Positions 43,740 to 64,000 of a DNA stretch of 64,000 nt are shown one piece after another. Within the stretch, counting starts at the first letter, position 1. Every line of letters begins with the position of its first letter. The notes under the pieces are model-generated. The model was not told where the DNA came from. It did not search any database and saw nothing but the letters and a program-made list of their open reading frames with translations. Made by a program: the position numbers and the translations under genes. Source of the DNA: Ruminococcus sp. (GTDB taxonomy: Bacteria > Bacillota > Clostridia > Oscillospirales > Acutalibacteraceae); assembly GCA_045593025.1 (NCBI GenBank), contig JAZNVW010000016.1, positions 44,537 to 108,536 on the forward strand, given 5' to 3'.

Positions 43740-43740
43740 A

Positions 43741-43799: not shown

Positions 43800-43852
43800 T
43801 AACGAGCAATATATGGTTGCCACTTCTTGTTCATAGCGTTTTACCAAAAAGA

Positions 43853-45252: not shown

Positions 45253-45267
45253 TCATAAAACTTCTAT

Positions 45268-46791: not shown

Positions 46792-46805
46792 ATAAGCACG
46801 CCTCC

Positions 46806-47513
46806 TTAATTCACAAATAAAGCAATTGCCGAATGATTATCATTATTTTCAGGCATCACACGCTCTAACAAAGCTCTCATTTTCTTTAGCCAATCTTGCG
46901 AAGATTTCGAGCTGTTCAACAAACCAATCATTTCTTGTTCAGTAATATTTTCCCAGAAACCATCTGAACACAAAAGCAACGCATCACCTTGTTCCAGAGA
47001 GGAACTGGTCAAATCAACTTTAACCTTCTCTTTACTACCTAAAACTCGAATAAGTTTATTTCGATCCTTATGTCCCCTTATCTGCATTGCGTCAATTTCA
47101 CCCATCAAAACTGCCATTTGCGAGACACTATGATCCGTTGATTGAAATTTTATTGTGCCATTTCTAAAATGATACACCCTGGTATCCCCAACTGTCGCAA
47201 ACAAACAGTTATTTTCTTCTATCCATACGATAGAAATTGTTGTTTTCATTTTATTCTCTTGGTTTTGTTCTAAGATACTCATATTTGCTTTTTCGACAGA
47301 GTCTAAAAGCAACGATTCTGACAAAGGCATATTATGTAAGCAATTATTTATAGTTGTTGTAGCAAGTCTGGATGCAACTTCTCCCGAATCGTATCCACCT
47401 AGTCCATCTGCAACTATTGCCACCAACTGATTGCACCCTTCAATCAGACTCACAAAATCTTCATTATTTTTTCTACCGCCTACCGCTGAGTAGTATGATG
47501 CATCTATATTCAT
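46806..47513 (-). CDS. PP2C-family Ser/Thr phosphatase
   Basis: 235 aa with motifs GGRKNNEDF, VADGLGGYDSGEVAS, LLLCSDGFWE and DNHSAI. Confidence 0.9.
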   Translation of the reverse strand: MNIDASYYSAVGGRKNNEDFVSLIEGCNQLVAIVADGLGGYDSGEVASRLATTTINNCLHNMPLSESLLLDSVEKANMSILEQNQENKMKTTISIVWIEENNCLFATVGDTRVYHFRNGTIKFQSTDHSVSQMAVLMGEIDAMQIRGHKDRNKLIRVLGSKEKVKVDLTSSSLEQGDALLLCSDGFWENITEQEMIGLLNSSKSSQDWLKKMRALLERVMPENNDNHSAIALFVN

Positions 47514-47546
47514 AACATCGTTCCTTGTTTTTTATAGCTATTTAAA

Positions 47547-48356
47547 TCATTTGTTTTTTATAAAAACAGCAACATTGCAATTGTACTTTTCAGAAAGTTC
47601 TCTTTCCATTTCTTCCGCTAACTCGCTTACATATTCATATTTGTCGTTTTCATAATCATCATTAGGAATATTACCATTTTCATCGTATTCAATACCATAT
47701 GAAATTTCAAATACCAAAGAATCGTTAAAAGCTCTCATTCTGTTTATGGCTTTATAATCATAGATAATCTCATAGACATCATCATTAGATGTGTCTAACT
47801 TAACAAAAATGATATTTTTCCATGTTTCCTCAACTATTGAAATAATGTCTTTAGTAATGGTTAATTGATTTTGATCATTTACTGATGAGAAAAACACCTC
47901 TAATTGCTCATCTGATAATCTTTCAATATAGGCATTATTTCTAATACTGATATTGCACCGCCCACAAGATCCAATTTTGCTGTACACTGAAACATCAACT
48001 TGAGGGAAATTGCTTGAATAATCATCAAGTTTCTTTTGAAAGTCGTCAATTGAAGCAATAGAATTAAGATAAAAATTCATAGTTGCTAAATATGCCGCCT
48101 GTATCTTTTGATATTTGCTTTCCTTAATTGTCTCAAAAACAACACCCTTCTTCTTTGCATGATCAATATCATGTCCCAAAGGATAAATGTTATTTGCCTC
48201 GTCTATATCCAACGGAAAAATTTGCAATGTACATATCACATTAGAACTCTCCTTTATACATCCTTTATTGACACTAAAAAATTCTACCATTACACCGAGA
48301 ACAAGAAATAAAATTATAAAACAAAAAACGGTTATTCTAAGTGTAATTCTATTCAT
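47547..48356 (-). CDS. hypothetical N-terminally anchored protein (candidate immunity/accessory protein)
   Basis: 269 aa with one N-terminal TM helix (ITVFCFIILFLVLGVMVEFF). Its start overlaps the stop of the upstream papain-like effector by 4 nt. No family recognised. Confidence 0.4.
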   Translation of the reverse strand: MNRITLRITVFCFIILFLVLGVMVEFFSVNKGCIKESSNVICTLQIFPLDIDEANNIYPLGHDIDHAKKKGVVFETIKESKYQKIQAAYLATMNFYLNSIASIDDFQKKLDDYSSNFPQVDVSVYSKIGSCGRCNISIRNNAYIERLSDEQLEVFFSSVNDQNQLTITKDIISIVEETWKNIIFVKLDTSNDDVYEIIYDYKAINRMRAFNDSLVFEISYGIEYDENGNIPNDDYENDKYEYVSELAEEMERELSEKYNCNVAVFIKNK

Positions 48357-49468
48357 GAGTTATACCTTGATTGCTGAAATTCAATTCTCATATTTTCATC
48401 GAAATCATCAGGATCAATGTAATACGCCCCCCCCCAAGACGAAACCTTATACATTTTTTTCCCATTAATTGTCGAAACACCTGTAATCACCATAGCATGA
48501 CCACCATCACGTGTGTCAACAAGATTTCCTTCATGATTACGAAGTCGCAAAGGACTAATTGCAACAACAATTTCGCCTTGTTCAGACAATTCTTCATAAT
48601 TATCGACTGTTACATCTAAATTAATTATATCAACTTTAATTTTTTTGACTTTTAAATAGTTTTCCCACCTTGTCTCACTGGTTCTTTTTGTTAATCCATA
48701 TGTTTCTCCATCAATTTCACCCTCAACACAATAAAAATCCAACATAACTAAATCATAATTTGGATAACCATTTTCATCGTACATTGAAAACCCAAAATCT
48801 TTTGCAAATAAGTCCTCTCGTCCAATATACTGACCAAAAATGGTATTAACCCAAGCCATATAATTACAGCCTTCACTATTCATTTCCGAAAGCAAATCAG
48901 CAATTCTCTCATCAGGTAATTCCGGAAAATATCTTCTTACAATACTTCGCAATTGATCTCTATCTCCGCGACCCCAACGTCTTGCAGCAGATCCCTGATT
49001 ACCTCCATAATGCAACCCATCATCATGAGTATATGATGGATTGATAAATCCGGTTAATATGTTCTCCAATTTAACCCAAACCGCATCAAAAGTCGTAATG
49101 TTATCTGTTGAAAACCCATTATTGTTTGGGTTGGCTATATTAGATAATATATGTATACACTTATGAAATTGTGTTATTGCTTGTAGTAGAGCATCAAATG
49201 CATTATTATAAGAGGAATCAATAATATTTACATTCGTAAAAATATTTTCAATATTTGACCGAGTGGTATTATTTTTATCAATTACTTTTCTATGATATTC
49301 ATTCACGTTACTTATGTAATTCTTTATATTTAATACTCCTATCCACGACTGAAAATCATACCATCTGTCTCCAAACCAATCAGTAAAATCACTAAGTTTC
49401 TCATTCTCAACTTCCGAAACCATTTGCAGTAATTCACCTTTTGATCTTTCCGAAAAATCCCTATACAT
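48353..49468 (-). CDS. putative T7SS effector: shared N-terminal domain + C-terminal papain-like cysteine peptidase
   Basis: The N-terminal ~115 aa are paralogous to ORF 49533..51065. The C-terminus has NSEGCNYMAW (Cys), DGGHAMVITG (His) and VSSWGG, the order and context seen in papain-fold peptidases. Confidence 0.5.
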   Translation of the reverse strand: MYRDFSERSKGELLQMVSEVENEKLSDFTDWFGDRWYDFQSWIGVLNIKNYISNVNEYHRKVIDKNNTTRSNIENIFTNVNIIDSSYNNAFDALLQAITQFHKCIHILSNIANPNNNGFSTDNITTFDAVWVKLENILTGFINPSYTHDDGLHYGGNQGSAARRWGRGDRDQLRSIVRRYFPELPDERIADLLSEMNSEGCNYMAWVNTIFGQYIGREDLFAKDFGFSMYDENGYPNYDLVMLDFYCVEGEIDGETYGLTKRTSETRWENYLKVKKIKVDIINLDVTVDNYEELSEQGEIVVAISPLRLRNHEGNLVDTRDGGHAMVITGVSTINGKKMYKVSSWGGAYYIDPDDFDENMRIEFQQSRYNS

Positions 49469-49532
49469 GGTTTTTCACATCCAAACATATAACTATTTCT
49501 TTGCCAACGCAACAATCGTCTTAAACGCAAGG

Positions 49533-51065
49533 TTAAATATTAAGCGTTAAATCCTCTAGTCGCTCAATTTCTTCCTCAATTTTTGCTATCATATCTCTCG
49601 TGCATTGTTTATCTTCTGAACTAGCAAAAATCGCACTCACGCTATCCAACGCATTTTCCATAACTGTAATAATTGCTTTGTATTCTTGTATTTTTGCTGC
49701 TTTCGCAAGTTCAAAATATGTTCTACATTGTTCTGCATCATAATTGGAATAATCCCCAGAGTTAACTTTATTTCGATAGTACTCATATTTCTCAACTAAT
49801 CCATAGGAGTATTGCTGTGTAGAATATACACTTCCAATATTGTCTGTAGTATCTGTTAGTCCAATTACCGAAGATGATATATCCTTTGTGTCAATAAACA
49901 AGTCCAACAAAGGCAAGGCTTTATCTATACCCTTATCAATACCCATTTGGGCAAGCTTTTCAATACCATCATGTGCTGCCGATATGTACTGATTGCGATA
50001 TTCCCACAACAAGGAATCCACAACCTTGTTTACAGTTTCGTTATCATATCCTCCATCTATTAACGCTTTTTTTATTGCTTCAAGATACTTCACATCTTCA
50101 GTATAATCATTAAATACTTTAGTAATCATTTGAGTAGAAATGTCATAAATATCAACTGCATCACTATAAGCCCCCAAAGTGCTTTCCACATCTTTGGTCA
50201 TACTTTGAATAAACTGTAAGTTTTCTGATTGACATAACCATTTTAAGTAATCTGACTCTGTTATATCTTTTATGTCAATCTCTAATATTTCTGCTATCTT
50301 TGCCTCAGTAATATCTTCACCCAAATCAAGTGTAAGTCCAATAATCTTCTCACCAATCTTAAATTCTTCTGGTTTTAGTGCTTTTGTGTATTCTTGGGTA
50401 AAATCGGAAGCAACATGCTTATTATCTAAAACTTGTGAAATCAACTCTAAGATACTCTTTTTCACAATTGTCTCATTAACATCATCACCAATATCAAACA
50501 ACAAGCTCGTCATATTCTCAATCCAGTTAGCTGTCCAACCAACAGCTATTGCATCTAAGTCAGTATTACGCGAGTCAATAAATATACCTGTAAAATCAAC
50601 ACCAAGCAATTTGGGGCATACTTCCTCTGTAGGTGCAGTAAAATACTCCATAGACTCAGTAAGGAGTTCGGATAATTCTGCCATGGAATCCGATATAAAC
50701 TCCCCTCTAAAACACCCATTTGACGGATTAACAAGTTGGCACAACTCTTCCATATATCGCTTAATTATGCCAAACTGTGTATTATTCTGCTGTAATATTG
50801 TAGAATATCTACCATCAAGATTAGTAACTGCATTAAATATTCTGCCTATAGTATCTTTTGTCGTGTTGTTCTTATCAATGACTTTTCTATGATACTCATT
50901 AACATTATCAATATAGTTTTTGATATTTAATACACCAATCCACGATTGAAAATCATACCACCTATCTCCAAACCAGTCAGTCAAATCATGGAGTTTCTCA
51001 TTTTCAACATCAGAAACCATTTGAAGCAATGTATTATAGGAATTCTCAGAAAAATCTCTATACAT
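49533..51065 (-). CDS. putative T7SS substrate/effector: shared N-terminal domain + long helical C-terminal region of unknown function
   Basis: 510 aa. The first ~80 aa are about 80% identical to ORF 48353..49468 (MYRDFSE..DWFGDRWYDFQSWIGVLNIKNYI.NVNEYHRKVIDKNNTT). There is no TM helix and no recognised catalytic motif. Confidence 0.5.
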   Translation of the reverse strand: MYRDFSENSYNTLLQMVSDVENEKLHDLTDWFGDRWYDFQSWIGVLNIKNYIDNVNEYHRKVIDKNNTTKDTIGRIFNAVTNLDGRYSTILQQNNTQFGIIKRYMEELCQLVNPSNGCFRGEFISDSMAELSELLTESMEYFTAPTEEVCPKLLGVDFTGIFIDSRNTDLDAIAVGWTANWIENMTSLLFDIGDDVNETIVKKSILELISQVLDNKHVASDFTQEYTKALKPEEFKIGEKIIGLTLDLGEDITEAKIAEILEIDIKDITESDYLKWLCQSENLQFIQSMTKDVESTLGAYSDAVDIYDISTQMITKVFNDYTEDVKYLEAIKKALIDGGYDNETVNKVVDSLLWEYRNQYISAAHDGIEKLAQMGIDKGIDKALPLLDLFIDTKDISSSVIGLTDTTDNIGSVYSTQQYSYGLVEKYEYYRNKVNSGDYSNYDAEQCRTYFELAKAAKIQEYKAIITVMENALDSVSAIFASSEDKQCTRDMIAKIEEEIERLEDLTLNI

Positions 51066-51088
51066 AGCTATCTTCCTTTCATAAACAA

Positions 51089-51358
51089 TTAACCATTCAC
51101 AATCTTGTCTGCGGCTTTGCTATCACTTGAAACATAGCTATCTCGTGTGTTTTGTAAAAACAGGATTGTATTCGACACAAGTTCTCCAAAACAATTATTT
51201 AGGGATTCATACATTGATGCAATCTCCTCTAATTTATTAACAGTTTTACCGCCACCAACAGTAACGGGTGGCGTAGTGCTTACTAAGTCACACCTTGTTT
51301 GCAAGCTTCTTAATCTTCCTATGGAATTATTTATTTCATCAATATTAATATTAATCAT
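51089..51358 (-). CDS. small helical T7SS-associated protein (DUF3130/TIGR04197-like, tentative)
   Basis: 89 aa with a helix, a Gly/Thr-rich turn (TTPPVTVGGGKT), then a second helix. It lies immediately upstream of the effector genes. Confidence 0.4.
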   Translation of the reverse strand: MININIDEINNSIGRLRSLQTRCDLVSTTPPVTVGGGKTVNKLEEIASMYESLNNCFGELVSNTILFLQNTRDSYVSSDSKAADKIVNG

Positions 51359-51378
51359 AGTTCAAAACTCCACCTAAT

Positions 51379-51666
51379 TTAAAATAAGAATTGATCTTCT
51401 ATATCAACACGCGTTAAAAATCCTTCTATTTCTCGTTTCGCATCTCTAGAAACAAGACCAATTTGACTTTTTAGCTGATTAACATATGAAATGTATGTAC
51501 TCAGTGCATTTGAAACTTCGCCGCTCATAATGGCTTTAGCTTTTACTTCTTCTAAAATTTCAACATAATCTACAATAAATGTATCAAGTTGTTCACCCTG
51601 TGACTCGAAATAGGCACCCATACTTCTACAATATTCATCATCAATAATAAGTTCGTTACTAGCCAT
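51379..51666 (-). CDS. small helical T7SS-associated protein
   Basis: The ATG at 51666 follows AAGGAGGGAG. 95 aa, predicted all-helical and acidic. Confidence 0.4.
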   Translation of the reverse strand: MASNELIIDDEYCRSMGAYFESQGEQLDTFIVDYVEILEEVKAKAIMSGEVSNALSTYISYVNQLKSQIGLVSRDAKREIEGFLTRVDIEDQFLF

Positions 51667-51683
51667 AATTCTCCCTCCTTCTT

Positions 51684-52268
51684 TTAAGTTGCATAGCGCA
51701 ATTGGTTTTCCCAATACACTTTACGTTGTCTGCGATAAGACAATTTTGAATTCGTATCATTGAGTTGACTATTACATGAGTTAATATCTCGTCTTGTCCT
51801 ATCTATTTGTCCATTTACAGAATTAATGCGATTATTCAAATCATCTATTTCTCTTTGTATAGATGAAATTTTATTATTAACCACATTAATTGCTGAAGTT
51901 AATCCATTATATGCATGCCTATATTCAGAACCTGATAACAACGACTGCATTCCATTAACATACGATGAAATAAACTTAAGGTTCAGTTGTCTAGAAAAGT
52001 GCACATTAAATCTGCTAATACGTCTAGATTGTCTATCAGCAAACTGTGTCTGTAAATTTTGATACTTACTTTTAAGATGACTTAATTCATCAATTTGATT
52101 TCTTAGTCCACTAATCTGATTCCTCAAACTATCAATTTGTGAATAGCACTGATTCAACTGAGAATTATAAGTATTAATTCTATCATTCAATCTACCAATA
52201 TCTCTTAAATATTGGTTAATTAAATTTTCGTTGTATCGAATATTATTACGAACCTCTTGCTTTGTCAT
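51684..52268 (-). CDS. coiled-coil protein (YwqH/DUF5082-like, tentative)
   Basis: 194 aa with N/Q/R/I-rich heptad repeats at both ends (LNDRINTYNSQLNQCYSQIDSLRNQISGLRNQIDEL; IQREIDDLNNRINSVNGQIDRTRRDINSCNSQL). Confidence 0.45.
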   Translation of the reverse strand: MTKQEVRNNIRYNENLINQYLRDIGRLNDRINTYNSQLNQCYSQIDSLRNQISGLRNQIDELSHLKSKYQNLQTQFADRQSRRISRFNVHFSRQLNLKFISSYVNGMQSLLSGSEYRHAYNGLTSAINVVNNKISSIQREIDDLNNRINSVNGQIDRTRRDINSCNSQLNDTNSKLSYRRQRKVYWENQLRYAT

Positions 52269-52411
52269 CGCTCGCTCCTCCTACAAAGAATTTTAATATA
52301 TAAACTGCACTAAGCAGGTATTTTCTATCTCATATAATTATCTATGGTACATGGCTAAGGCATTGGCAAGTTATATCAACTAATAACTCACCAATGCCAC
52401 CACATGGATTT

Positions 52412-52720
52412 TTAACCCTTGCGTGTGAACTGACTATTGATATTACGATCAGTTTCTTCAAGGATTTTAGCGGTTTCTCTGAGGTTATGTGCGATTTCCT
52501 CGAATAACTCTACAGCATTTGTAAAGGTTTTAGTTTTTATCTCGTTATATCTACTTCTGTAGCCTTCCATTGCTGCACCTTCCCATTCACCTTCAAGTGT
52601 AACAAGAAGCCTGTCCATATTGCTGATTAAAGTTCTCATCTCTTCTGCACGTCTATCGACCTCACCAGCTCTTGTCCTCATCACTTCAGGTTTCATTCTG
52701 ATAGTACCAGAACCAGCCAT
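52412..52720 (-). CDS. esxA: WXG100-family secreted protein (EsxA-like)
   Basis: About 100-aa helical hairpin with a central W-E-G (LEGEWEGAAMEGY). The ATG at 52720 is 8 nt after AAGGAGG. It lies directly downstream of essC. Confidence 0.85.
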   Translation of the reverse strand: MAGSGTIRMKPEVMRTRAGEVDRRAEEMRTLISNMDRLLVTLEGEWEGAAMEGYRSRYNEIKTKTFTNAVELFEEIAHNLRETAKILEETDRNINSQFTRKG

Positions 52721-52780
52721 AATATTCACCTCCTTATAATTTATTCTATAGGAAATTAGTCTCCGACCAATTTTCTAACA

Positions 52781-55700
52781 TCAAGAATCGGGTTGTTCTT
52801 TTGCTTTTACCAACTTAAGTTTAACAACATTATTATCATGAATATAGTAAGCATCTCCAACCTCAAGGCGTTTTCGATTATTTCGTATATCTTCATACGG
52901 AACATCAAAGGGTTTCAGATTATCAAGATCCTCAAAGAACAAAAGATGTTGTTCCTGCTTAACAGTTCTTATAGGTTCCGGAGCATCATATGACACAGAA
53001 GAATTAGAATAATTCGAGAAGATAATAGCGACATTCATACCTTTAAAACGAGATACAATATCATTAAACATGTCTAGAATGCTATAATCTTCACTAATCT
53101 TTTTGGCTACATCATTGTTTTGAATTATCATCAAAAGCAATTCAGAATTACCATTAATGCTTCCATTCTCGATCAAAGTGTTATATCGTTCTGTTAAAAC
53201 GGAATGCCATTCCTGTATAATATCAGTAACCTTATCAACACCTAAAGAATATGTAGTTACTAACTTACTTTCTTTAAAGCACTCAAGTTTTCTAGTAACA
53301 TCATCAAACAATACAACTTTCGCAGGATTGGTTTCAATATTGGATTCCAGAACATCGAATAAATACGCTAAGAAGTTTTTATGACCAGTGTTCGCTTTAC
53401 CGCACAGTCCTATGATTCCTAACTGAGAAATGTCTAAATAATAAGGCTCAACATCTTGATAGGTTAAACCAACAGGAACTTTGTATCCTTCCGATTGTGC
53501 ATCGAACTCATATTTTATCGCATCCATTGTTAAAACTGTCGGAATATAAGGAATTTGTTTAGCTTTTATGCCAATATATTTATCATTAATATTAATAACA
53601 AACTCTTGCATTTGCTGAACTCGTGCATACTCTTTTTCACCTTCAAAAGCTAAGTAGGTTTGACACTCAAGGATTCTTTTATCGACCTCTAATATGCAAC
53701 GTCCAGGCACCTCATCGGGTTTTAATGTTACATGATCAAATAACGCAGAGTATTCTGATGTATCATTACAACACAAGGCCATCTTGTTAGCAAAGTTAGA
53801 TAAATATCTATATCCGATACCAGTTGTCTGAGAGTTTGTAACAATAGTAGATATACCCACCGATAATCCTTCTCTTAAAATATTCAACAAGCTGTCATCA
53901 TCTGCAAGATACAACTCGATAAGAGCTGTTAGATTATCAATCATTAAATATATATGAGGTAGGTCACTATATCCAGCTTCAACATACGAAGAATATGAAC
54001 TAACGCCTACAGAAACGAGTCTTTCTTTTCTCGTTAATATTTCCGAAAATAAAAGCTTAAACATATTCTTTAGCTTTTCATCATCAGAAGAGCACACAAC
54101 CCCACCAACATGATTTAAATTCTCAAAGTTTTTCAATACCATTGAACCAAAATCTAGAATATAAATGGTAGATTCTTTGGGAGACGATGTTGAGGCAATC
54201 GTTCTTATTAAACTTTGTAAAATATTAGTTTTACCATTTTGTGCTGATCCTAAAACAAATGTATTTTTATTATCAAAATCCATTGATGCTACTCCCTGAA
54301 TTTGGTTGTCCGGATCATCGTAAATACCCAGGCCTATCAAGCTATTTTTCTTCATATTGGCTTTTGAATATTCAATATGTTTTGGTAGTGATGGCAAACA
54401 AATATTAGGCAACCTACTTATACCTTTTACTCCACAATAGTTATGTACATACTCGACGATTGATTCTAACTGTGTAAAAACAGAACCAGATGTCTTTTTC
54501 TTCTTTTGAACATAAATCGGGGTTCGTTTTCCAGCCGCACTCACCTCAAATAATGCAAATTCTTTAATTTCGGCTTCTGCCATTTTTTCAGGAGCACCAC
54601 TATACGCAGACTGAAACAATTCGAACACCTCGTTGTTTCCCACCTGTAAATAAGCGCGACCAGGTTCCTTTATTTCCGCCGCCAATGGAGATTTAATAAC
54701 CTCATTACTATCCTCTTGGCTTTGAACTTTTAAACACAGTTTAAATTTAGAGTTACTCCAGATCTGTTCATCGACCTGACCAGATGGCTTCTGTGTTGCT
54801 AATATTAAGTGAACACCTAAACTTCGACCAATTCGTGCTGCTGATATCAACTCTTTCATAAACTCTGGTTGTTCAGCTTTAAGTTCAGCAAACTCATCTA
54901 CAATAAGTACTAAATGAGGGATTGGAACCGATACTTTTCCTGCTTTATACTTTTGTATATATTTATCTATATGGTTTACCTCAGCCTCAGCAAATAGCCT
55001 TTGTCTCTTCTGCAACTCAGCTTTTATAGATTTAAGAGAACGATCAATCTCTTTTCCATCAATATTTGTAATTGCGCCAAGCATATGTGGCAAATCCTTA
55101 AACTGATTGGCCATTCCACCGCCCTTAAAGTCAATAATCACAAATGCTACTTCGTAAGGATGGAATATGGTTGCAATTGACAATATGTAGGTTTGTAAAA
55201 TCTCGGACTTACCCGATCCAGTGGTACCTGCAACCAAACCATGAGGGCCATGTGCTTTATCATGCAAATCCAAAGAGATAATTCCTGTTTTTGTAACACC
55301 TATTGGTGCCGCCATAGACTGAAAAACTTTAGAATTTGCCCATCTTTGATCAAGGTTCAAATCGTCAACCATTAATATTCCAAACATTTCAAAAAGTGAA
55401 ATGTTTTTTGTAAGAGCACCCTCTAACGATATTTCCTCTGTAAATATTGGTGCTAATAAGTTTACGATTTTTTTTGCATCTTCATCGCTTATTCCATTAT
55501 AAGTAAAATCAACTGTATCGTCCTGATTATTAGAATTGACTAATCTGCCCTTATTATAAGAATCAACAAAAATCAACTGTGAGCATCCTTGCGGAATTTT
55601 GCTTTTTTCTTCCGCCATAAATACAAACGTCGCTGCAAGGTCTTTTAGTTTGTTTACATAGTTGGATAACGGATGTGTTTGAAAGCCACATTCATCATAG

Positions 55701-57295
55701 AAGAATACTATAATATGAGGCGCTTTATCAGCTTGCGAATTTTGTGAACGTTGTGTTAGTTCATTATACAAATAATCGAACGTACGACTCTTACTTTCAT
55801 CGTCAACAGCGATATTTCTATATGATGTTGCTTCGTTATATACATGAGGTAAAAATCTTAACCAACTAATCTTAGGAGCATTTTCTTTTGCAGCTACAAA
55901 GAACAATTGTACATCAGTATAATACTGGCGAGCACAAATATCGATTATTAGGTTCTTCATGATAGAAAAACGACAATCCATATTTCCAATTATACCAATT
56001 GCGTTACTTTCTCGAAACTCACAAACAACGGGTGCATTTTCTAATGCTGAAAATTCCTGAGACACCTGTTGTGGTATTAACTGTAAATCATCTTCAACTT
56101 CTAAGCATTCTTGTTTTTTGTATTCAACATCTCTAGATGGCGTAACGCTACCTAATCCCAATCGCACTTGCAGGAAATCATCATCAAATATTCGTCTATC
56201 AAACAAATCACTAGAATAATCTATGAATCTCGTATACTCCGTTGATATATCTAAATACATCTGTTCTAAAGCTTGTCTTTCTTCATCTCTATATTTAGAT
56301 ATATCCGAACGCTTTCTTTCTATATATTTATTGTATTTTTCTATTCTCTCTTCGTTTTGTTTTTTAAACTCAACCTTATTTTGAATCGCGGTCATAACAG
56401 CTGTTACAATTGCCATTCCTCCAGAAATAAGGCTAAACACCACCATAGTACCGCCCATAGAAGCCATCAAGCCAGACGCCACTAACATACCTAGTGATGG
56501 TAAAAGACTCATCAACAAATTAGATTTTGCTTTTTGCGGTTTTGGAGGCGGATCAAGAACCTCGATTTTATCCGTATTTAAGACTGTCCTAATTCTAGTA
56601 TTACGACTAAATTTCGGATAGTTATTAGGGTTCGGATAATCAGTATAGGATAGTCCGTTTACAAATAAGTCTCCTCTAATTTCTGTCCACAAAATGTCAT
56701 TCTTATAGTAAAAATTAAAATCAGATATTGAGAAAAAATCCCCGTTCTTCACTACGCATCCGCTTATAGCTCTTGAACCATTATAGTAAACACCATATGT
56801 CGCTTTCCTGATTTGCAAATCAAAGCCTTTTGAGGATTTTTGTAATTCTATAACATCATCTTTAACAAAAGCACTCTTAAGCTTCACCTGACAATAATCA
56901 TCTGTTCCTATTCTAATCGAAGAACAACCAACAAGACTAATCGCTCTTTCATACTTAATTTTGCTATTGTTAAAATCAATTAGAAATTCTATTGTGAAAG
57001 CATCTATATTCGATTCTACGTATCTAATCGTAAATAAATCCCCATGCTTTGGAGAAAGTGCCATAAGCTTTCTACTATCTCCTACTGAAAAATAAAAGCT
57101 ATCAGAACACAACAAAGTCCACTCATTATTCTTCTTAATAAAATTAAGTTCAATTGGTTCAAAGAACAAATCTCTGTGTAATCTAAAATCACAACCTACA
57201 CTTGTACCTAATTTCGCTTCATTTTTACCAATAGGCAACTCAAATTCTTTATATAAATTTTTGTTTGATATTATTATTTTATATCTGTACTCCAT
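52781..57295 (-). CDS. essC: type VII secretion FtsK/SpoIIIE-family ATPase EssC
   Basis: 1504 aa with N-terminal FHA-like repeats and two TM helices (LLMSLLPSLGMLVASGLMA.., VVFSLISGGMAIVTAVMTAI). Three P-loop domains are present: GTTGSGKSE with IVDEFAEL, GSAQNGKTN, and the degenerate GKANTGHKN. Confidence 0.95.
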   Translation of the reverse strand: MEYRYKIIISNKNLYKEFELPIGKNEAKLGTSVGCDFRLHRDLFFEPIELNFIKKNNEWTLLCSDSFYFSVGDSRKLMALSPKHGDLFTIRYVESNIDAFTIEFLIDFNNSKIKYERAISLVGCSSIRIGTDDYCQVKLKSAFVKDDVIELQKSSKGFDLQIRKATYGVYYNGSRAISGCVVKNGDFFSISDFNFYYKNDILWTEIRGDLFVNGLSYTDYPNPNNYPKFSRNTRIRTVLNTDKIEVLDPPPKPQKAKSNLLMSLLPSLGMLVASGLMASMGGTMVVFSLISGGMAIVTAVMTAIQNKVEFKKQNEERIEKYNKYIERKRSDISKYRDEERQALEQMYLDISTEYTRFIDYSSDLFDRRIFDDDFLQVRLGLGSVTPSRDVEYKKQECLEVEDDLQLIPQQVSQEFSALENAPVVCEFRESNAIGIIGNMDCRFSIMKNLIIDICARQYYTDVQLFFVAAKENAPKISWLRFLPHVYNEATSYRNIAVDDESKSRTFDYLYNELTQRSQNSQADKAPHIIVFFYDECGFQTHPLSNYVNKLKDLAATFVFMAEEKSKIPQGCSQLIFVDSYNKGRLVNSNNQDDTVDFTYNGISDEDAKKIVNLLAPIFTEEISLEGALTKNISLFEMFGILMVDDLNLDQRWANSKVFQSMAAPIGVTKTGIISLDLHDKAHGPHGLVAGTTGSGKSEILQTYILSIATIFHPYEVAFVIIDFKGGGMANQFKDLPHMLGAITNIDGKEIDRSLKSIKAELQKRQRLFAEAEVNHIDKYIQKYKAGKVSVPIPHLVLIVDEFAELKAEQPEFMKELISAARIGRSLGVHLILATQKPSGQVDEQIWSNSKFKLCLKVQSQEDSNEVIKSPLAAEIKEPGRAYLQVGNNEVFELFQSAYSGAPEKMAEAEIKEFALFEVSAAGKRTPIYVQKKKKTSGSVFTQLESIVEYVHNYCGVKGISRLPNICLPSLPKHIEYSKANMKKNSLIGLGIYDDPDNQIQGVASMDFDNKNTFVLGSAQNGKTNILQSLIRTIASTSSPKESTIYILDFGSMVLKNFENLNHVGGVVCSSDDEKLKNMFKLLFSEILTRKERLVSVGVSSYSSYVEAGYSDLPHIYLMIDNLTALIELYLADDDSLLNILREGLSVGISTIVTNSQTTGIGYRYLSNFANKMALCCNDTSEYSALFDHVTLKPDEVPGRCILEVDKRILECQTYLAFEGEKEYARVQQMQEFVININDKYIGIKAKQIPYIPTVLTMDAIKYEFDAQSEGYKVPVGLTYQDVEPYYLDISQLGIIGLCGKANTGHKNFLAYLFDVLESNIETNPAKVVLFDDVTRKLECFKESKLVTTYSLGVDKVTDIIQEWHSVLTERYNTLIENGSINGNSELLLMIIQNNDVAKKISEDYSILDMFNDIVSRFKGMNVAIIFSNYSNSSVSYDAPEPIRTVKQEQHLLFFEDLDNLKPFDVPYEDIRNNRKRLEVGDAYYIHDNNVVKLKLVKAKEQPDS

Positions 57296-57306
57296 AATAT
57301 CACCCC

Positions 57307-57561
57307 TTATTCCGTGTAATAAATAACACTTCCATTACGAATTCCATATTCCTTTAGCGTTTTGTTACCTCTAAGAAGTGCTATTGGATTTTCAGATTTC
57401 AAATAGCATTTCTTAATGTCTGTTGTATCGATATTCAGTCTATAAGCCGTATTAAGTCCAATCACCAACTCTGTTGCAGTTATATCAAGTGGCACTTCAA
57501 TATCAACACTGGTATTATTCTTAGCGTTATTAAAAATCACAATTGCTTTATCATTATTCAT
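57307..57561 (-). CDS. esaB: YukD/EsaB ubiquitin-like T7SS protein
   Basis: 84 aa: VDIEVPLDITATELVIGLNTAY...TLKEYGIRNGSVIY fits the beta-grasp YukD pattern. It lies directly upstream of essC. Confidence 0.8.
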   Translation of the reverse strand: MNNDKAIVIFNNAKNNTSVDIEVPLDITATELVIGLNTAYRLNIDTTDIKKCYLKSENPIALLRGNKTLKEYGIRNGSVIYYTE

Positions 57562-57572
57562 ATATATACCCC

Positions 57573-58631
57573 TTAAATAATCAAATAGGCAATTTTTTGT
57601 ATATCTTTATCGTTTGATAAATCGTTAATAGATATATCATCATAAGCGGAGTAGTGTCCTATATAATCAACAACACTGTATTTTTTATTAATCGCAGGAG
57701 AGATCAAATAATTAGGTGCATCATCAACAAAGTTATTACACACAAAAATAAACTTATCACTCGTAACCCCATTCAAATTCGATACTAGTAGATTTGTTGC
57801 TTTTACCGAATACTTGCTCTGTGAAGTAACAACAACAACTTTATCTGCTATATCAATCAAACGAACTTGTTCCTCATCAAATGCCGACTCTACATCAATT
57901 ACTATACAATCGTATTCACCGCTGTTTTTTGCAGAAACAGCAATGTTTTCATACACACTAAAATCTATGCCATAAGACATCAACGCCGTTTTAAAGGGTG
58001 GTAAATAGCTAAACTCTTCTTTTCTCACCACATGCTTGATTGCCGAGTATATATTAGTGTTTTCCATTGTCAATTTTGCATACACATCCGAAGCTGCAAT
58101 TGGCTCTTGATTCACAAGCAAAGACTGAAAACATTGCAGTCTTGCGGCATTTATATACAGAACTCTTTTATAATTCTTACTCAAATACGAACAAATACCA
58201 AGTGCAACAGTAGTTTTACCTACACCTCCGGAAGCCGAGCATACGAGTGCTATCTGCGTTTCCTTGTGTTCAACATCCTGCAATTCTAACGAGGATGAAC
58301 CTTTTCCGCTAATAACATTAAAAATCTCTTTAAGACTTGTATATTTATATATAAATGTTATATTTGATGGTTTTTCTATTTGCTGTGAAGGTTGTTCAGT
58401 CATAACAAAGATATTACCTATATTATGTAAACTAAGCGATGAAGAGTATAACTCTTCAGAAACAACCAAAATATCTACTTTTTGAGGAGCAGAAAAAACT
58501 TCATCAAAAAAAATCCTATCGGTTATTATTTCTAAATCAATATTATCATAATATTTTTCTATAAATCGTTGCTGCAAAGGTATTATGTACTTACTATCAG
58601 TATCAGCAATAATAATTCTTGGATTAACCAT
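57573..58631 (-). CDS. CpaE/TadZ-like protein: receiver-like N-domain + ParA/MinD-class ATPase
   Basis: The N-terminus (RIIIADTDSKYI...VDILVVSEELY) has a CheY-like topology. The Walker A is IALVCSASGGVGKTTVALG and the Walker B-like motif is CIVIDVES. Confidence 0.7.
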   Translation of the reverse strand: MVNPRIIIADTDSKYIIPLQQRFIEKYYDNIDLEIITDRIFFDEVFSAPQKVDILVVSEELYSSSLSLHNIGNIFVMTEQPSQQIEKPSNITFIYKYTSLKEIFNVISGKGSSSLELQDVEHKETQIALVCSASGGVGKTTVALGICSYLSKNYKRVLYINAARLQCFQSLLVNQEPIAASDVYAKLTMENTNIYSAIKHVVRKEEFSYLPPFKTALMSYGIDFSVYENIAVSAKNSGEYDCIVIDVESAFDEEQVRLIDIADKVVVVTSQSKYSVKATNLLVSNLNGVTSDKFIFVCNNFVDDAPNYLISPAINKKYSVVDYIGHYSAYDDISINDLSNDKDIQKIAYLII

Positions 58632-58647
58632 TGTTATTCACCCACTC

Positions 58648-59565
58648 TTATCCAATAATAACTTTAAACTCACTGTTGGCAAGTCGAACGATATCACCAT
58701 TTTTAATCAAAAAGATTTCACCTGACGACACTCTTTCTCCATTAATATAGGTTCCATTAACACTGCCTAAATCTGTAATACTATACCTACCGTTATGTTG
58801 CATTATTTTGCAATGTGAGCGACTTATCATTTTGTTATAAGGAACAACTCCATCTACAACGCCTTGCTTTTTACCTATAGTAAATTCATCTTTAGTAACA
58901 TATATTTCAAGAGGAAATGAAGGATTCAATGAAACTAACTTCATAACCATATTCTCTCTTACAACATCATCAGATTTATTGCCACCCTTAGAATCTGCAA
59001 AACCAGCAGTTTTTACTTTATTATAAAGATTTTCTAACGATATCAATCCATTTGACAAATCAGCAGCTAATTGAAAAGTCTGAGACGATGATAATGAAGG
59101 TATATTCTGAATAAGTTTTATCAAATTTGAGCGTAGTGTATTCTCAAATGAAGCAGTATCAACAAACAATCTTTTTGTTATAGGCAGATAAACCAATCCA
59201 ATTTTATAAGTTGCAGGATCAAAATATATTTGATTTAAGGAAAGATCTATGTTCTGACAAGATAAAAAACCATTACTTTTAACTGAAATTATGTCATCAA
59301 GCAAATTCTTTACAATATTTAAAAAAGTTTTAGAATCTAAAGAATACAAAACACTTTCAAGAGACTTATATCCATCGGTTAAATAATAAAGCTGAACTTT
59401 CCCATTAAACAATGCTTTTACACATTTAATAAATGTGCCGTCCTCCTGGCTTTGCAGAACTTTATACTCAGTTAAAGAAAAAATGTCATTTTCATTTATC
59501 ACATAAGCAAAATTTTCACCACACACCATTTCGCTCAAGACACCATTTTCAACTAAAACATTCAC
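58648..59565 (-). CDS. FHA-domain protein with an uncharacterised ~190-aa N-terminal domain
   Basis: The C-terminus (FTIGKK...ISRSHCKIMQHNGRYSITDLGSVNGTYINGERV) is a canonical FHA domain with the R/S/H/N core residues. The N-domain is not recognised, and there is no TM helix. Confidence 0.85.
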   Translation of the reverse strand: MNVLVENGVLSEMVCGENFAYVINENDIFSLTEYKVLQSQEDGTFIKCVKALFNGKVQLYYLTDGYKSLESVLYSLDSKTFLNIVKNLLDDIISVKSNGFLSCQNIDLSLNQIYFDPATYKIGLVYLPITKRLFVDTASFENTLRSNLIKLIQNIPSLSSSQTFQLAADLSNGLISLENLYNKVKTAGFADSKGGNKSDDVVRENMVMKLVSLNPSFPLEIYVTKDEFTIGKKQGVVDGVVPYNKMISRSHCKIMQHNGRYSITDLGSVNGTYINGERVSSGEIFLIKNGDIVRLANSEFKVIIG

Positions 59566-59712: not shown

Positions 59713-62700
59713 TCAACCAGAATATTTAAACTGTGCTATCCAACCCCATTTTCCGTTATAATTTATGTATCCCCAAATGTAAGTTCCATCCCAATAGTTT
59801 CCATATACCGACAATGTTACACCTTGTCCTACCGTACCAAGCGAAGAATAACCGGTTCCCGCTCCAGAACGAATATTATAAGTTGTATTAGTTGTAAATG
59901 ATGGACTCTTAACCGTAACCCTACATTGAGCAGTATTTCCATTGTATGTCGTTACAGTTAAGTATGCGATATTAGAAGAAGTTGCAGTGGAAGATGTTGA
60001 ATCTGTTCCAACCGCACACACAACTCCACTACCATCCCACACATTGCCTTTTACATAAATTATTTTATTATCACTTGAGGACAGGCTCAATGAATGAGGT
60101 CTGTATACAGACGCACTATATGTTGCTTTTTGTGTTCCATTTAAATAAACATAAACAGATGCTGTCTTTGTTGTGTTATAGTCTATCAAACAAGGTGTTA
60201 CAGTAATAGTTGCTACATTACCACTTTGACTAACAGACGTTGTCACTACACTTGTATTACTACTAGAGGCAGTAACTTTGGTTGCAGAGGAATTTGTTGT
60301 AACTGTAAATTTCTTAGGTGTGCGATCCCATGAATGACTTACAGAGATACTAACCTCTTCACCAACATATACTGTACTTGAATAATCTGTTATTTCGATT
60401 CCAGTGTCAAGCACCTTGAATGAACCACTATAACTACTCATACTAACAATACTGTCGTTGCTTACACTAACAGTAAATGTCGTTGTTTTGCCTCCGTAAC
60501 TAACTGTAATTGTTTTTGTTCCGGAGGAAGAGAACCCACCTGTTGGCGAACAACTAAATCCGTTTGAAATTGTCTTTGTGGAACCATTATTATATTTAGC
60601 TGTTAATGTCAAACCTGAATCATTAAATGATTCGCCCACATAATACGAAGTCTTTGATGGTTTACTCTTAACTGTAATTGACGACAACTCAAGCTTTGAT
60701 ACAGATACAGTGAATGTTGTTGTTTTACCTTCATAAGTAACTGTAATTGTTTTAGTACCTGAAGAAGATAACGATGTTGGTGAACAACTGAATCCACTTG
60801 AAATTGTCTTAGATGTACCATTATTGTATTTAACAGTTAATGATAAACCCGAAGTGTTAAGCGTATCGCCTTCATAATACGAAGTTTTTGTAGGTCCACT
60901 CTTAACCGAAATAGAGGAAACAACCACATCTTCCACATACACTGTGAATGTTGTTGTCTTTCCTTCATAAGAAACCGTGATTGTTTTTGTACCTGATGAA
61001 GACAATGTTGTTGGTGAACAGCTAAAACCACTTGTTATGGTTTTTGTCGTTCCGTTGTTACACTTAACAGTTAGAGATAATCCGGATGTATTAAGTGTTT
61101 CACCCTTATAGTAGGATGTCTTTGTAGGTTTGTTATTAACTGATATAGAAGTAGGCTCAACCTTCTCAACATTAACTGTAAATGTTGTCGTAAATCCTTC
61201 ATAAGAAACCGTGATTGTTTTTGTACCTGATGAAGACAATGTTGTCGGCGAACAACTAAAACCACTTGTTATAGTTTTTGTTGTTCCATTGTTATACTTA
61301 ACACTCAAAGACAAACCAGAAGTATTAAGAGAATCCCCTTCATAGTAGGATGTCTTTGTAGGTTTGTTTTGAATACTTATAGAAATAGGATCTACTGATT
61401 TAACATTAACTGAAAATGTTGTTGTTTTACCATTGTAAGTTACTGTAATTGACTTTGTACCAGACGAAGATAACTTTGTTGGTGTGCAACTAAAACCAGT
61501 TGTAACAATTTTTGTTGTTCCATTATTATATGTTTCTGTTAAAGTCAATCCAGATGTATCGAGTGTATCACCCACATAATAAGATGTTTTTGAGGGATTA
61601 CTCTTAACAGATATATATGCTGGAAGAACTTTCTCAACGTTAACTGTAAACTTTGTTGTTTTACCCTCGTAACTTACCGAAATCGTCTGTGTTCCGGACG
61701 CCGTTAAAGTTGTCGGAGAGCAAGTAAAATCATTGAAAATAGTTTTTGAAGTTCCATCATTATATTTTGCAACAAGCGATAAACCTGATGCATTTAATGT
61801 ATCTCCCACAAAATAATCTGTTATACTAGGCTCTGTTCTAACTGAAATTTCAGTCACTACTATTTTAGTCCAATGAGCATACAAGGTTTGCGAAGAAGTG
61901 ATTTCTACCTTTGACGATGATGTAATATTAGAACCGCCACTCGCAGAGGTATACCAACCATCAAAGATGTAACCACTTCTTATAGGTGTTGGCAATGTTC
62001 CGTATGTAGATGCATATACAACATTTTTACTTGATGTCGCTACACTACCACCATTTGCATTAAAGGTTACTGTATATCCCTTTTCACTCCAGTGAGCATA
62101 CAAGGTTTGATTGCCTGCTGTTGTATACTTTGATTCCGAAAGGATTTCAGTTCCGCCGCTCGCCGATGTATACCATCCAACAAATGTATATCCTGAACGA
62201 CTAACAGTTTCAAGGTCACCATATTTTGACCCATAAGAAACTTTCTTAGATGAGGGTGCTGCTCCACCACCATTTGTATTAAAAGACACTGTATATTCAT
62301 TAGCCGTCCATTGGGCATACAATGTATGGCTTGAAGGAGTTGTTACGATTGTACTTGAGGTAACCTTAACACCGCCTGACTTAGCGGAATACCAACCTTT
62401 AAATGAATATCCTTCTCTTTCAGGAGTAGGAAGCTCGCCATAACCTTCATTCAAATAAAGCGTATTACTGCCGTTGCTAACAGAACCTCCATTAGCATTA
62501 AAAGAAACGTTAATGGGCTGTTTTCCTTTGCTCACATATATAATAATTGTTGAATTCGGCAACTGAGCTGTGCCAGCCTTTGGCGACTGACTAATAACCT
62601 TACCTGCGGCAACTGTAGAATCATAGTTTTCCAGCACTGTTACTTTAAATCCTTGTCCCTTAAGAATACTAGTGGCATCAGATTCGGATTTTCCTACTAC

Positions 62701-64000
62701 ATTTGCTACATCAATTGTTTCACGTCCACTTGAAACAGTAAGCGTTATTTCGTCTCCTCGCTTTACTGCTGTTCCTAACGCTGTACTCTGACTAATAATT
62801 TTTCCTTCTTCTACGTTATCCGTCTTTTTGTATTCAACATAAACAACTAAACCTTTGCTTGTAAGCATAGCTTCTGCACTCTCTAAGCTATCTCCTACAA
62901 CATCGGGCATTTCGAATGCTGATGGGCCAAGAGAAATGGTCAGAGTGATTTTTGTGCCTTCCTCAACTTCATCTCCCGCATTAATACTCTGTGCAATTAC
63001 AGAACCCAACGCAACATTATCATCGTATTTTTCTACGATTTCAGGCTCTGAAAGTCCAGCTTTAAGCAACTTTGCAATCGCATCATCTTTTGAATCCCAG
63101 ATTACATACGGAACTGTGGAGACTCCATTTTCTGGCGATACAACATCCTTACCACTACTTACCATAAGTTCAACGGTTCCATTGATATCCATATAAGAAC
63201 CACCAACCGGAGTTTGGAGTATTATCTTTCCGGCAGGAATGTATTCTGATTCTATGGTTCCTTCTGCTGATGCAAGGAGTTGTCCTTCTTCAATTAATTC
63301 AAGTGCTTCATCCTTGTATAAACCTTCTACTTCCGGAACTACCACAATGCCCTCGGGAATTACAATCTCTTGAGTAAACTTTGAAAAATTAATAACACCA
63401 GTAACAAGCAAAAGTCCCAAGCAAACGATTATTACTAAAAGCGAAGGAATTAAAATCTTCAACCATAACGGCCAACTTAATCTGTCAATCAATTTAATTT
63501 TGCCATATATTCGTTTGGGTGGTGTTGGCGAAGTTAACTCTTGAATAAACGCTTCAATAGTTGGAGTTCTATCTTCAATTCTCACATTCAAAGCATTCAA
63601 GATAGCATTTTCACGAGATTTAGAAATCCCCTTGTTAAGCTTATGCGGATTAACCAAAACATCAGTACGCTTTGTTTCGTACTTAACACGCCTTTCCATC
63701 GCATCGGGAGGCGTTTCCCCTGTGACCATCCTGTATAATGTAGCAGCAAGAGAGTAAACATCCGTATGAGGGCCGTGGTCTCCCCTGCTTCTATATTGTT
63801 CTTCTGGTGAATATCCCTGCTTAATTACTACAGTCAAGCTTCTGCTGTGTGAAGTTGTCGCATAGCGAGAAGCACCAAAGTCTATGAGTTTAATCTCGCC
63901 ATCATCTGTAAGGAATATGTTATCGGGTGCAATATCCCTATGTAATATGCCCTCTGCATGAACAGCCTGTAATGATTCCATGACAGGCATCAGCATAGCT
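59713..64000 (-). CDS. PASTA-type Hanks Ser/Thr kinase (5' end outside window) with a greatly extended ectodomain
   Basis: The window starts mid-kinase (HRDIAPDNIFL, DFGAS, GYSPEEQ) and one TM helix follows (WLKILIPSLLVIIVCLGLLLV). About 4 PASTA units follow. Then come 3 Listeria-Bacteroides-type repeats (NANGGS...GY.F.GWY...LYA.W), 6 Ig-like repeats, a further beta-rich region and a C-terminal SH3b-like domain (YNIRSGAGTGYSSLG..). Confidence 0.9.
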   Translation of the reverse strand, partial: AMLMPVMESLQAVHAEGILHRDIAPDNIFLTDDGEIKLIDFGASRYATTSHSRSLTVVIKQGYSPEEQYRSRGDHGPHTDVYSLAATLYRMVTGETPPDAMERRVKYETKRTDVLVNPHKLNKGISKSRENAILNALNVRIEDRTPTIEAFIQELTSPTPPKRIYGKIKLIDRLSWPLWLKILIPSLLVIIVCLGLLLVTGVINFSKFTQEIVIPEGIVVVPEVEGLYKDEALELIEEGQLLASAEGTIESEYIPAGKIILQTPVGGSYMDINGTVELMVSSGKDVVSPENGVSTVPYVIWDSKDDAIAKLLKAGLSEPEIVEKYDDNVALGSVIAQSINAGDEVEEGTKITLTISLGPSAFEMPDVVGDSLESAEAMLTSKGLVVYVEYKKTDNVEEGKIISQSTALGTAVKRGDEITLTVSSGRETIDVANVVGKSESDATSILKGQGFKVTVLENYDSTVAAGKVISQSPKAGTAQLPNSTIIIYVSKGKQPINVSFNANGGSVSNGSNTLYLNEGYGELPTPEREGYSFKGWYSAKSGGVKVTSSTIVTTPSSHTLYAQWTANEYTVSFNTNGGGAAPSSKKVSYGSKYGDLETVSRSGYTFVGWYTSASGGTEILSESKYTTAGNQTLYAHWSEKGYTVTFNANGGSVATSSKNVVYASTYGTLPTPIRSGYIFDGWYTSASGGSNITSSSKVEITSSQTLYAHWTKIVVTEISVRTEPSITDYFVGDTLNASGLSLVAKYNDGTSKTIFNDFTCSPTTLTASGTQTISVSYEGKTTKFTVNVEKVLPAYISVKSNPSKTSYYVGDTLDTSGLTLTETYNNGTTKIVTTGFSCTPTKLSSSGTKSITVTYNGKTTTFSVNVKSVDPISISIQNKPTKTSYYEGDSLNTSGLSLSVKYNNGTTKTITSGFSCSPTTLSSSGTKTITVSYEGFTTTFTVNVEKVEPTSISVNNKPTKTSYYKGETLNTSGLSLTVKCNNGTTKTITSGFSCSPTTLSSSGTKTITVSYEGKTTTFTVYVEDVVVSSISVKSGPTKTSYYEGDTLNTSGLSLTVKYNNGTSKTISSGFSCSPTSLSSSGTKTITVTYEGKTTTFTVSVSKLELSSITVKSKPSKTSYYVGESFNDSGLTLTAKYNNGSTKTISNGFSCSPTGGFSSSGTKTITVSYGGKTTTFTVSVSNDSIVSMSSYSGSFKVLDTGIEITDYSSTVYVGEEVSISVSHSWDRTPKKFTVTTNSSATKVTASSSNTSVVTTSVSQSGNVATITVTPCLIDYNTTKTASVYVYLNGTQKATYSASVYRPHSLSLSSSDNKIIYVKGNVWDGSGVVCAVGTDSTSSTATSSNIAYLTVTTYNGNTAQCRVTVKSPSFTTNTTYNIRSGAGTGYSSLGTVGQGVTLSVYGNYWDGTYIWGYINYNGKWGWIAQFKYSG
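60463..61851 (-). repeat. six tandem ~231-bp (77-aa) Ig-like coding repeats inside the kinase gene
   Basis: Repeat unit is ..ISVKS.PSKTSYY.GD.L.TSGL.LT.KYNNGT.KTI.SGFSCSPT.LSSSGTKTITV.YEGKTTTFTV.V. Echo ORFs appear in another frame at 60609-61265. Confidence 0.8.

Follow-up and report, generated by a model that had tools for sequence, protein, structure and literature searches.

Why should a protein with the build of a Tad-pilus localisation factor be encoded between a forkhead-associated (FHA) protein and the EssC motor of a type VII secretion system (T7SS)? This question is raised by a gene, here called V, in a 64,000-nucleotide (nt) stretch of DNA from Ruminococcus sp., a member of the Acutalibacteraceae (this whole stretch is referred to as the window). 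V is an ATG-started open reading frame (ORF) on the minus strand (57573..58631; stop codon at 57573-57575) that encodes a protein of 352 amino acids (aa). It is a TsfV-type component of the T7SSf subtype, a component that has been known since 2024 and is hence not new, and it is a near-obligate member of an operon that also comprises the FHA protein gene (J), a YukD-type gene (B) and the gene for EssC (C). By analogy with TadZ, we consider it reasonably probable that this cytoplasmic, TadZ-like protein would act as a nucleotide-dependent dimeric scaffold for the assembly, stability or placement of the EssC complex.

V is a two-domain homologue of the Firmicutes Tad-pilus protein TadZ because its sequence, its predicted fold and the Tad locus of its nearest structural relative all point in this direction. 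The N-terminal part of the protein (residues ~1-110; 58302..58631, minus strand) is an atypical receiver domain with the element order b1-a1-b2-a2-b3-a3-b4-b5-a5 in the secondary structure of an AlphaFold2 (AF2) model, and the remainder (residues ~124-352; 57576..58262, minus strand) is a ParA/MinD-type nucleotide-binding domain according to Pfam, PDB sequence and Foldseek matches. Residues 130-290 matched the Pfam families AAA_31 (42.6 bits) and CbiA (31.4 bits), each over its cut-off, while NCBIfam contributed weak, sub-threshold ParA, MinD, BcsQ and VirC1 models only. When the N-domain was searched in isolation against Pfam, TadZ-like_ARD aligned with residues 5-107 over nearly its whole profile (E 0.0099; 16.7 bits, under the 27.4 cut-off), and Response_reg gave no match even at E<=10. 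With the single V sequence as query, phmmer placed the TadZ protein of Eubacterium rectale (PDB entry 3fkq) at the top of the PDB sequences (E 1.4e-12), with an alignment that runs through both domains (residues 5-275) and with MinD (4v02; E 1.1e-7) behind it. A profile of 22 family members again found 3fkq across both domains (residues 3-278; E 1.6e-20).

The AF2 model, which was built on the alignment of these 22 members (predicted local distance difference test score, pLDDT, 71; predicted template modelling score, pTM, 0.62), shows an alternating strand/helix N-domain at residues 5-107 and a Rossmann-like C-domain. When this model was compared with the PDB by Foldseek, 3fkq again ranked highest (375 aligned columns; E 5e-14). 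Next in rank were ParA, Soj, MinD, FlhG, FleN and Wzc-type P-loop proteins, and the 50 matches listed contained no AAA+ protein. The TadZ/CpaE-like architecture that the earlier note had read from the DNA is thus borne out by sequence as well as by fold, and the structure prediction and Foldseek comparison that it had proposed as a check placed the model among ParA, Soj, MinD and FlhG once 3fkq had been passed. The modelled fold is of the ParA/MinD kind (SIMIBI class), and not AAA+, as TsfV is labelled by Garrett et al. (2024).

Sequence identity between V and 3fkq is low (19-22%), and the genomic setting of 3fkq is informative in its own right. A protein that is 99% identical to it sits in a genuine Tad locus, in which the gene for a T2SSE ATPase follows 11 nt downstream and is itself followed by genes for a T2SSF protein, a Flp-like pilin and a Tad-domain protein. 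TadZ is a ParA/MinD-like protein that occurs in Tad systems only and promotes the polar placement of the machine and of its TadA motor; its atypical receiver domain is thought to mediate protein contacts, tadZ typically adjoins tadA, and its Walker A-like consensus is K/RGGxGxS/T (bioRxiv 10.64898/2026.07.08.737194). V and 3fkq share the atypical receiver plus ParA/MinD-like domain in a protein of ~350 aa with homology over both parts, the loss of the receiver acceptor Asp, an Asn rather than an Asp in switch I, and a gene position immediately upstream of the motor ATPase of the respective system. They differ in that V adjoins the FtsK-type EssC instead of a T2SSE ATPase, and no Tad genes were found in the window or next to V in related loci, whereas the 3fkq locus contains them. 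The Walker A motif of V ([S/C/A]GGxGKT in the family, SGGVGKTT in the window) is opposite to the TadZ consensus, and V keeps the P-loop Lys that the GGVGTS of 3fkq lacks.

The family to which V belongs is large and uniform in length. An exact look-up of the window V in the contig index gave no entry. A word-indexed search yielded 1345 homologues, the top 120 of which all measure 351-355 aa, and an exhaustive phmmer search recovered 1404 cluster representatives (328 at E<=1e-30), nearly all of ~350 aa. The C-terminal tail DIQKIAYLII (residues 342-352; 57576..57608) is strongly conserved, with Q345, F/Y349 and L350 being near-invariant; it is hydrophobic rather than basic-amphipathic, and a docking motif or a core helix are candidate roles for it. 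V shares with MinD, FlhG and Soj the fold and the topology of P-loop, switch and Walker B. It differs from them in the missing signature lysine and switch-I Asp-x-Asp, in the extra N-terminal receiver-like domain, in the absence of MinC, MinE and ParB partner genes, and in a tail (IQKIAYLII) that is not a basic amphipathic membrane-targeting helix.

Three database proteins were encountered in which V appears to be joined to other sequences. In P0137, V appears to be fused to the N-terminal DUF6382 part of J; in P0216, its ATPase domain appears to be joined to a trypsin-like protease and a transmembrane (TM) segment; P0217 has a similar length to P0216 and matches the same V region. Because P0137 and P0216 have one V sequence in common but differing N-termini, these proteins are likely to be assembly chimeras, and we set them aside as Rosetta-stone evidence.

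The statement of the earlier note that neither canonical T7SSa nor canonical T7SSb has such a component is correct, yet the component is already known from 2024, when it was described under the name TsfV in the T7SSf subtype. In that work, Garrett, Higginson and Palmer (Microlife 5:uqae013, PMC11217815) defined the T7SS subtypes c to j and described T7SSf as consisting of TsfA (WXG100), TsfB (YukD-like), TsfC (EssC with FHA domains), TsfF (a PPM phosphatase), TsfJ (DUF6382 plus FHA; two TM helices; 468 aa) and TsfV, a P-loop ATPase whose atypical receiver domain is TadZ-like and whose gene has T7SS genes on either side. The supplementary entries list TadZ-like_ARD, AAA_dom and P-loop_NTPase as InterPro assignments and TadZ and Soj as Foldseek matches for TsfV, and give WP_010963367.1 as the accession of the T7SSf YukD (PMC11217815). 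A literature search found no further paper that mentions TsfV or T7SSf.

The window V resembles TsfV in its TadZ-like receiver and P-loop NTPase, in its cytoplasmic character, in its occurrence in Clostridia and in the NCBI name 'AAA family ATPase'; a hydropathy scan found no hydrophobic segment in the protein, matching the description of TsfV as cytoplasmic. The surrounding locus resembles T7SSf as well: a DUF6382-FHA protein of the TsxJ type is encoded upstream, and a YukD-like TsxB and an EssC that is nearest to TsfC are encoded downstream. For the comparison of motors, the published types were represented by N-terminal EssC sequences only (~640 aa, from Fig. S2 of the supplement of Garrett et al.); within this N-terminal portion, the window EssC scored 189 bits against TsfC, 86 against TsjC, 85 against the Staphylococcus aureus EssC, 81 against TseC and 73 against TsiC, and TsfC was the best type for all 75 of the 75 genome loci with an EssC match. 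The FHA region of the window J did not discriminate between the subtypes (71 bits against TsfJ, 62 against TseJ and 51 against TsjJ). Two loci, L079 and L084 (Clostridium sp. DSM 17811), show the canonical layout with a J protein of 467 aa, PP2C, V, B, C and A, and no kinase; the L079 V protein aligns with the window V over its full length at 38% identity. A search with the L079 V that was aimed at Clostridium acetobutylicum proteins gave matches in other Clostridium species only.

The window locus departs from the published description in two respects. It encodes two Ser/Thr kinases, and its J protein has 305 aa and no TM segment, whereas published T7SSf loci have no kinase and TsfJ has 468 aa and two TM helices; because of these kinases and this TM-free J, the window locus is an extended variant of T7SSf. 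The phylogenetic range also differs, since published T7SSf was called narrow (PMC11217815), whereas the V family comprises at least 328 clusters at 50% identity in Lachnospiraceae, Oscillospiraceae, Acutalibacteraceae and Clostridium. Systems with V range much more widely than has been published, and they usually come with a Ser/Thr signalling module.

All genes of the core lie on the minus strand in tight succession. J (58648..59565; 305 aa) matches DUF6382 with 30.6 bits and FHA with 58.8 bits and is separated from V by 16 nt (58632..58647). V in turn lies 11 nt (57562..57572) ahead of the YukD/EsaB-type ubiquitin-like gene B, or TsxB (57307..57561; 84 aa; PF08817, 39.5 bits). Then follow the gene for the TsfC-like EssC (C; 52781..57295; 1504 aa; TIGR03928, 1133.7 bits), which has an N-terminal FHA-like region, TM segments at residues ~260-304 and FtsK-type ATPase domains, and the WXG100/EsxA-type gene A (52412..52729; 105 aa; PF06013, 55.2 bits). 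The two gaps flanking V are those that the earlier note had given; it had left the strand unstated. J, B and EssC are close to V in GC content (V 32%, J 30%, B 31%, C 34%; 44% for housekeeping genes of the window), and a search for terminator-like sites between J, V, B and the start of EssC revealed none. J is predicted to be cytoplasmic since a hydropathy scan found no hydrophobic segment in it.

The arrangement is conserved far beyond the window. A V-based scan with one genome per species gave 78 loci from Clostridium species, Lachnospiraceae, Oscillospiraceae, Acutalibacteraceae, their relatives and a few bins otherwise labelled, and tblastn with the window proteins recovered the order J-V-B-C in all 78 wherever the contig was long enough; a V member with 30% identity is likewise followed by YukD. 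For a test in the reverse direction, metagenome contigs were scanned with an EssC N-terminal alignment that is blind to V. This yielded 80 loci, 67 of which were informative in that they extend at least 1450 nt upstream of EssC, and in 65 of these 67 V is located directly upstream of YukD-EssC. The absence of V from orthologous EssC loci, which the earlier note had named as a sign of random insertion, was therefore seen in two informative loci only. J was always directly upstream of V in the loci compared. Since the J-V-B-C order is kept and GC content and conservation agree, chance insertion of V or a hitch-hiking ParA gene is ruled out by synteny and composition.

These data also bear on the notion that V functions outside the T7SS, be it as the TadZ protein of a Tad pilus, as a partition ParA that merely resides in this locus, or as a decaying remnant. 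Such a role could be entertained since the nearest characterised homologue of V is a Tad protein and since Tad loci adjoin the T7SS subtypes g and h (PMC11217815). We consider it very improbable: the window contains neither Tad nor partition genes, the order J-V-B-C is invariant across the 78 genome and 65 metagenome loci, and no plasmid homologues of V were found at E<=1e-10. Moreover, the V reading frame is intact and stays close to 350 aa across the family, and the median identity to the window proteins is higher for V (52%) than for J (46%) and about equal to that of EssC (54%).

If V is a T7SS component, what biochemistry might it carry out? Column frequencies were taken from an alignment of 259 V family sequences. 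The motif SASGGVGKTT that the earlier note had singled out is located at residues 132-141 (58209..58238, minus strand) and contains the P-loop residues G135, G136, G138 and K139, with the Lys present in 245 of the 259 sequences and the ensuing T140 in 257; the Walker B Asp (D246) is found in every one of them (259/259). The conservation of the P-loop GKT and of the Walker B Asp makes ATP binding by V probable. Deviant Walker A ATPases are defined by a signature lysine (KGGxxK[ST]). The description of the V motif as a deviant ParA/MinD P-loop does not hold in this strict sense, since the signature-lysine position is occupied by S134 in the window protein; the five commonest residues at this position in the family are S, C, A, I and N, and Lys is not among them. 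Switch I of the window V reads N161-A162-A163, and its first position is Asn in 186 of 259 sequences and Asp in 41; these are the places of catalytic Asp residues in MinD (equivalents of D38 and D40) and Soj. The TadZ structure 3fkq has GGVGTS and Asn at the matching P-loop and switch-I places. In ParA/MinD-type enzymes, residues of this kind are expected to allow nucleotide binding but little or no hydrolysis, which suits a switch or a scaffold rather than a motor. Given the missing signature lysine and the replacement of the switch-I Asp-x-Asp by Asn-Ala-Ala, ATP hydrolysis by V is probably weak or absent.

The same residues weigh on the idea that V is an active ATPase that serves as a substrate or assembly chaperone, a functional analogue of T7SSa EccA whose ATP turnover would prepare substrates or recycle components. 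The conserved P-loop GKT and Walker B Asp would suit such an enzyme, and Garrett et al. introduced TsfV by comparison with EccA while reporting no homology between the two (PMC11217815). EccA, however, combines an AAA+ fold with a TPR N-domain, whereas the best fold matches of V that were listed are ParA/MinD-type P-loop NTPases; V also lacks the signature Lys, most family members have other residues in place of the switch-I Asp, and even the P-loop Lys is gone in some relatives (P0265, GGSGST). With TadZ, a localisation factor, as the closest relative, we regard a chaperone of the EccA type as quite improbable.

We favor the scaffold reading introduced at the outset. In this scheme, V would bind ATP with little or no hydrolysis and would act as a nucleotide-dependent dimeric scaffold and not as an energy source, since poor or no hydrolysis is predicted. 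It would help the EssC motor complex to form, to remain stable or to reach its place, in the way in which TadZ serves the TadA motor, in a system that operates without the EssA, EssB and EsaA proteins of T7SSb. The TadZ-like gene order, with the scaffold gene upstream of the motor gene, together with the lack of EssA, EssB and EsaA, is our reason for regarding such a scaffold role as the most likely one for V. By analogy, V might position EssC, or assemble it, at a cell pole or septum, as suggested in the earlier note.

The probable partner of V in this task would be J, the FHA protein that resembles a pseudokinase. A mirror-tree analysis of pairwise-distance matrices over 104 non-identical loci gave a distance correlation of r=0.82 for V and J (0.81 when EssC was controlled for), in comparison with 0.54 for V and B and 0.35 for V and C. 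At the level of domains, the V ATPase domain correlated with the DUF6382 domain of J at 0.77 and with the adjacent YukD (B) at 0.59. This co-variation hints at a J-V module. Since the published Foldseek matches of TsfJ are protein kinases (PMC11217815), J may be a pseudokinase-like counterpart of EssB.

Several points weigh against this overall picture. The confidence of the V structure model is moderate, and our literature search found no experiments on any TsfV, so that every functional step proposed for V is drawn by analogy. Over the 628 aligned residues of its published N-terminal sequence, the TsfC representative is only 25% identical to the window EssC, and we infer the homology of the window V to the published TsfV through the canonical-layout loci L079 and L084 rather than from a direct alignment. 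The catalytic-residue pattern is not uniform across the family, as seen from the 41 of 259 sequences with Asp at the first switch-I position and from a few distant relatives, such as P0265 with GGSGST, that have lost the P-loop Lys. The co-variation of V and J may in part be explained by linkage and recombination breakpoints rather than by contact. Lastly, the two exceptions among the 67 informative metagenome loci (L142 and L143) carry a TsfC-type EssC and YukD without J or V. They are of one type, which starts at YukD and has chemotaxis receptor genes and a Fur-like gene upstream; because both lack J and V, either V may be dispensable or these two loci may be degenerate.

How the receiver-like domain might contribute to the function of V leads to the signalling genes of the locus. 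The earlier note had asked whether the phospho-acceptor Asp is retained. It is lost: the position in which a CheY-like receiver has its phospho-acceptor Asp at the end of b3 is occupied by Ser58 (codon 58458..58460, minus strand; strand b3 spans residues 51-58 in the model), which aligns to a Glu of 3fkq. Ser is present at this position in 206 of the 259 family sequences and Asp in only 13, and Glu59 follows directly in 221. Other receiver residues have been kept, namely D10 (250), D12 (230), K96 (247) and T78 (149, plus Ser in a further 31).

Ser/Thr signalling genes frame the core of the window locus on both sides. Directly upstream of J lies a large Ser/Thr kinase gene (59713..63996, minus strand), whose 5' end is cut by the window edge and whose product has a TM segment, four PASTA, three Flg_new and six Big_3 domains and an SH3 domain according to Pfam. 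Downstream are a TsxF-like PP2C-type phosphatase (46806..47513, minus strand; 235 aa; PP2C_2, 55.7 bits) and a second Ser/Thr kinase with C-terminal zinc ribbons (45268..46791, minus strand; 507 aa; Pkinase, 112.9 bits; DZR), which together occupy 45268..47513. The large upstream ORF looks like a T7SS-associated kinase (TsxD) fused to a giant Ig-repeat surface protein (TsxI-like). The same large kinase gene is found upstream of J in the loci L006 and L011 (64-73% identity), and related loci have the order PP2C, kinase, small genes and giant Ig-like protein, followed by J-V-B-C-A. This is the published gene content of T7SSe or T7SSj (PMC11217815), to which V is added in the kinase-bearing loci. 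A kinase match is present within the fetched locus in 45 of 60 genome loci that extend at least 9 kb upstream of V.

These genes invite an explanation in which Ser58 or another conserved Ser/Thr of V is phosphorylated by the Hanks kinase of the locus and the mark is erased by PP2C; its recognition by the FHA domain of either J or EssC would gate the assembly or firing of the system, as threonine phosphorylation does in type VI secretion. The S58-E59 pair at the end of b3 with D10, D12, T78 and K96 kept, the two kinases and the phosphatase of the locus, a J FHA domain with intact SxxH and NG motifs and the co-variation of V with J would all fit such a phospho-switch. Furthermore, among the loci with at least 9 kb upstream (drawn from L001-L085), a kinase accompanies Ser at the acceptor position in 40 of 51 loci but any other residue there in only 3 of 9 (Fisher p=0.012, uncorrected for phylogeny); His takes this place in L079 and L084, the canonical T7SSf loci that lack a kinase. 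FHA domains, however, prefer phosphothreonine over phosphoserine. The Ser/kinase association is weak and phylogenetically non-independent, and no kinase lies within reach in 11 of the loci with Ser. The FHA region of the window EssC lacks the GR and SxxH motifs, each of which has a published conservation of 0% in TsfC (PMC11217815). We thus consider a phospho-switch of this kind unlikely.

Phospho-regulation has been raised for these T7SSs in general by Garrett et al., who drew a parallel to the threonine-phosphorylation control of type VI secretion systems (T6SS) (PMC11217815). As in the PpkA/PppA/Fha-TagH pathway, genes for a Hanks kinase, a PP2C phosphatase and an FHA protein accompany that of a secretion motor at the window locus. 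J matches the TagH model TIGR03354 (E 8e-10) but scores well under the cut-off of this model. The secretion machine is a different one, however, and the T6SS has no ParA-like component. A bolder variant would have the pseudo-receiver of V rewired from His-Asp to Ser/Thr signalling, such that kinase and PP2C acting on the Ser control the ATP-dependent dimerisation of V and, via J, the assembly of EssC. We regard this as a long shot; if true, a receiver domain would serve as the Hanks-kinase-controlled switch of a secretion system.

T7SSf-type systems are common in gut and rumen Clostridia (Lachnospiraceae, Oscillospiraceae, Acutalibacteraceae), where they occur without the EssA, EssB and EsaA proteins of T7SSb. 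The near-obligate presence of a TadZ-like protein by the motor suggests a different mode of assembly or positioning for these machines, and the principle may be borrowed from Tad pili. To the description of 2024, the present analysis adds the ParA/MinD fold class, the motif-based prediction of weak or absent hydrolysis, the replacement of the receiver acceptor Asp by Ser, the wide distribution of the family, the kinases often encoded at its loci and a lead for V working with J.

Between esxA and the PP2C gene, six further genes are located on the minus strand (47547..52268). They encode a 194-aa coiled-coil protein (YwqH-like) and proteins of 111 aa, 89 aa (DUF5344), 510 aa, 371 aa and 269 aa (with an N-terminal TM segment), and an order of 194, 95, DUF5344 and 483 recurs in L085. 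These genes probably represent an effector with small helper proteins. The T7SS region as a whole (38647..59565) has a GC content of 30-37%, with 40% for esxA, against 44% for PolA and PheT in the window, and at one of its edges are genes for a serine recombinase (38647..40266), a helicase (40565..43018), a sigma-70 region-4 protein and an M78-like protein. The T7SS may sit on an acquired island. Two other ORFs of the window have an unusual make-up. The first (30891..34388, minus strand) encodes a protein of 1165 aa with an AAA_2 (Clp-like) domain, a second AAA domain and a Peptidase_M41 domain of the FtsH type, an unusual double-AAA FtsH-like architecture. The second (107..1807, plus strand) is a single ORF in which an ABC-transporter permease domain (BPD_transp_1) is fused to an extracellular solute-binding domain (SBP_bac_8).

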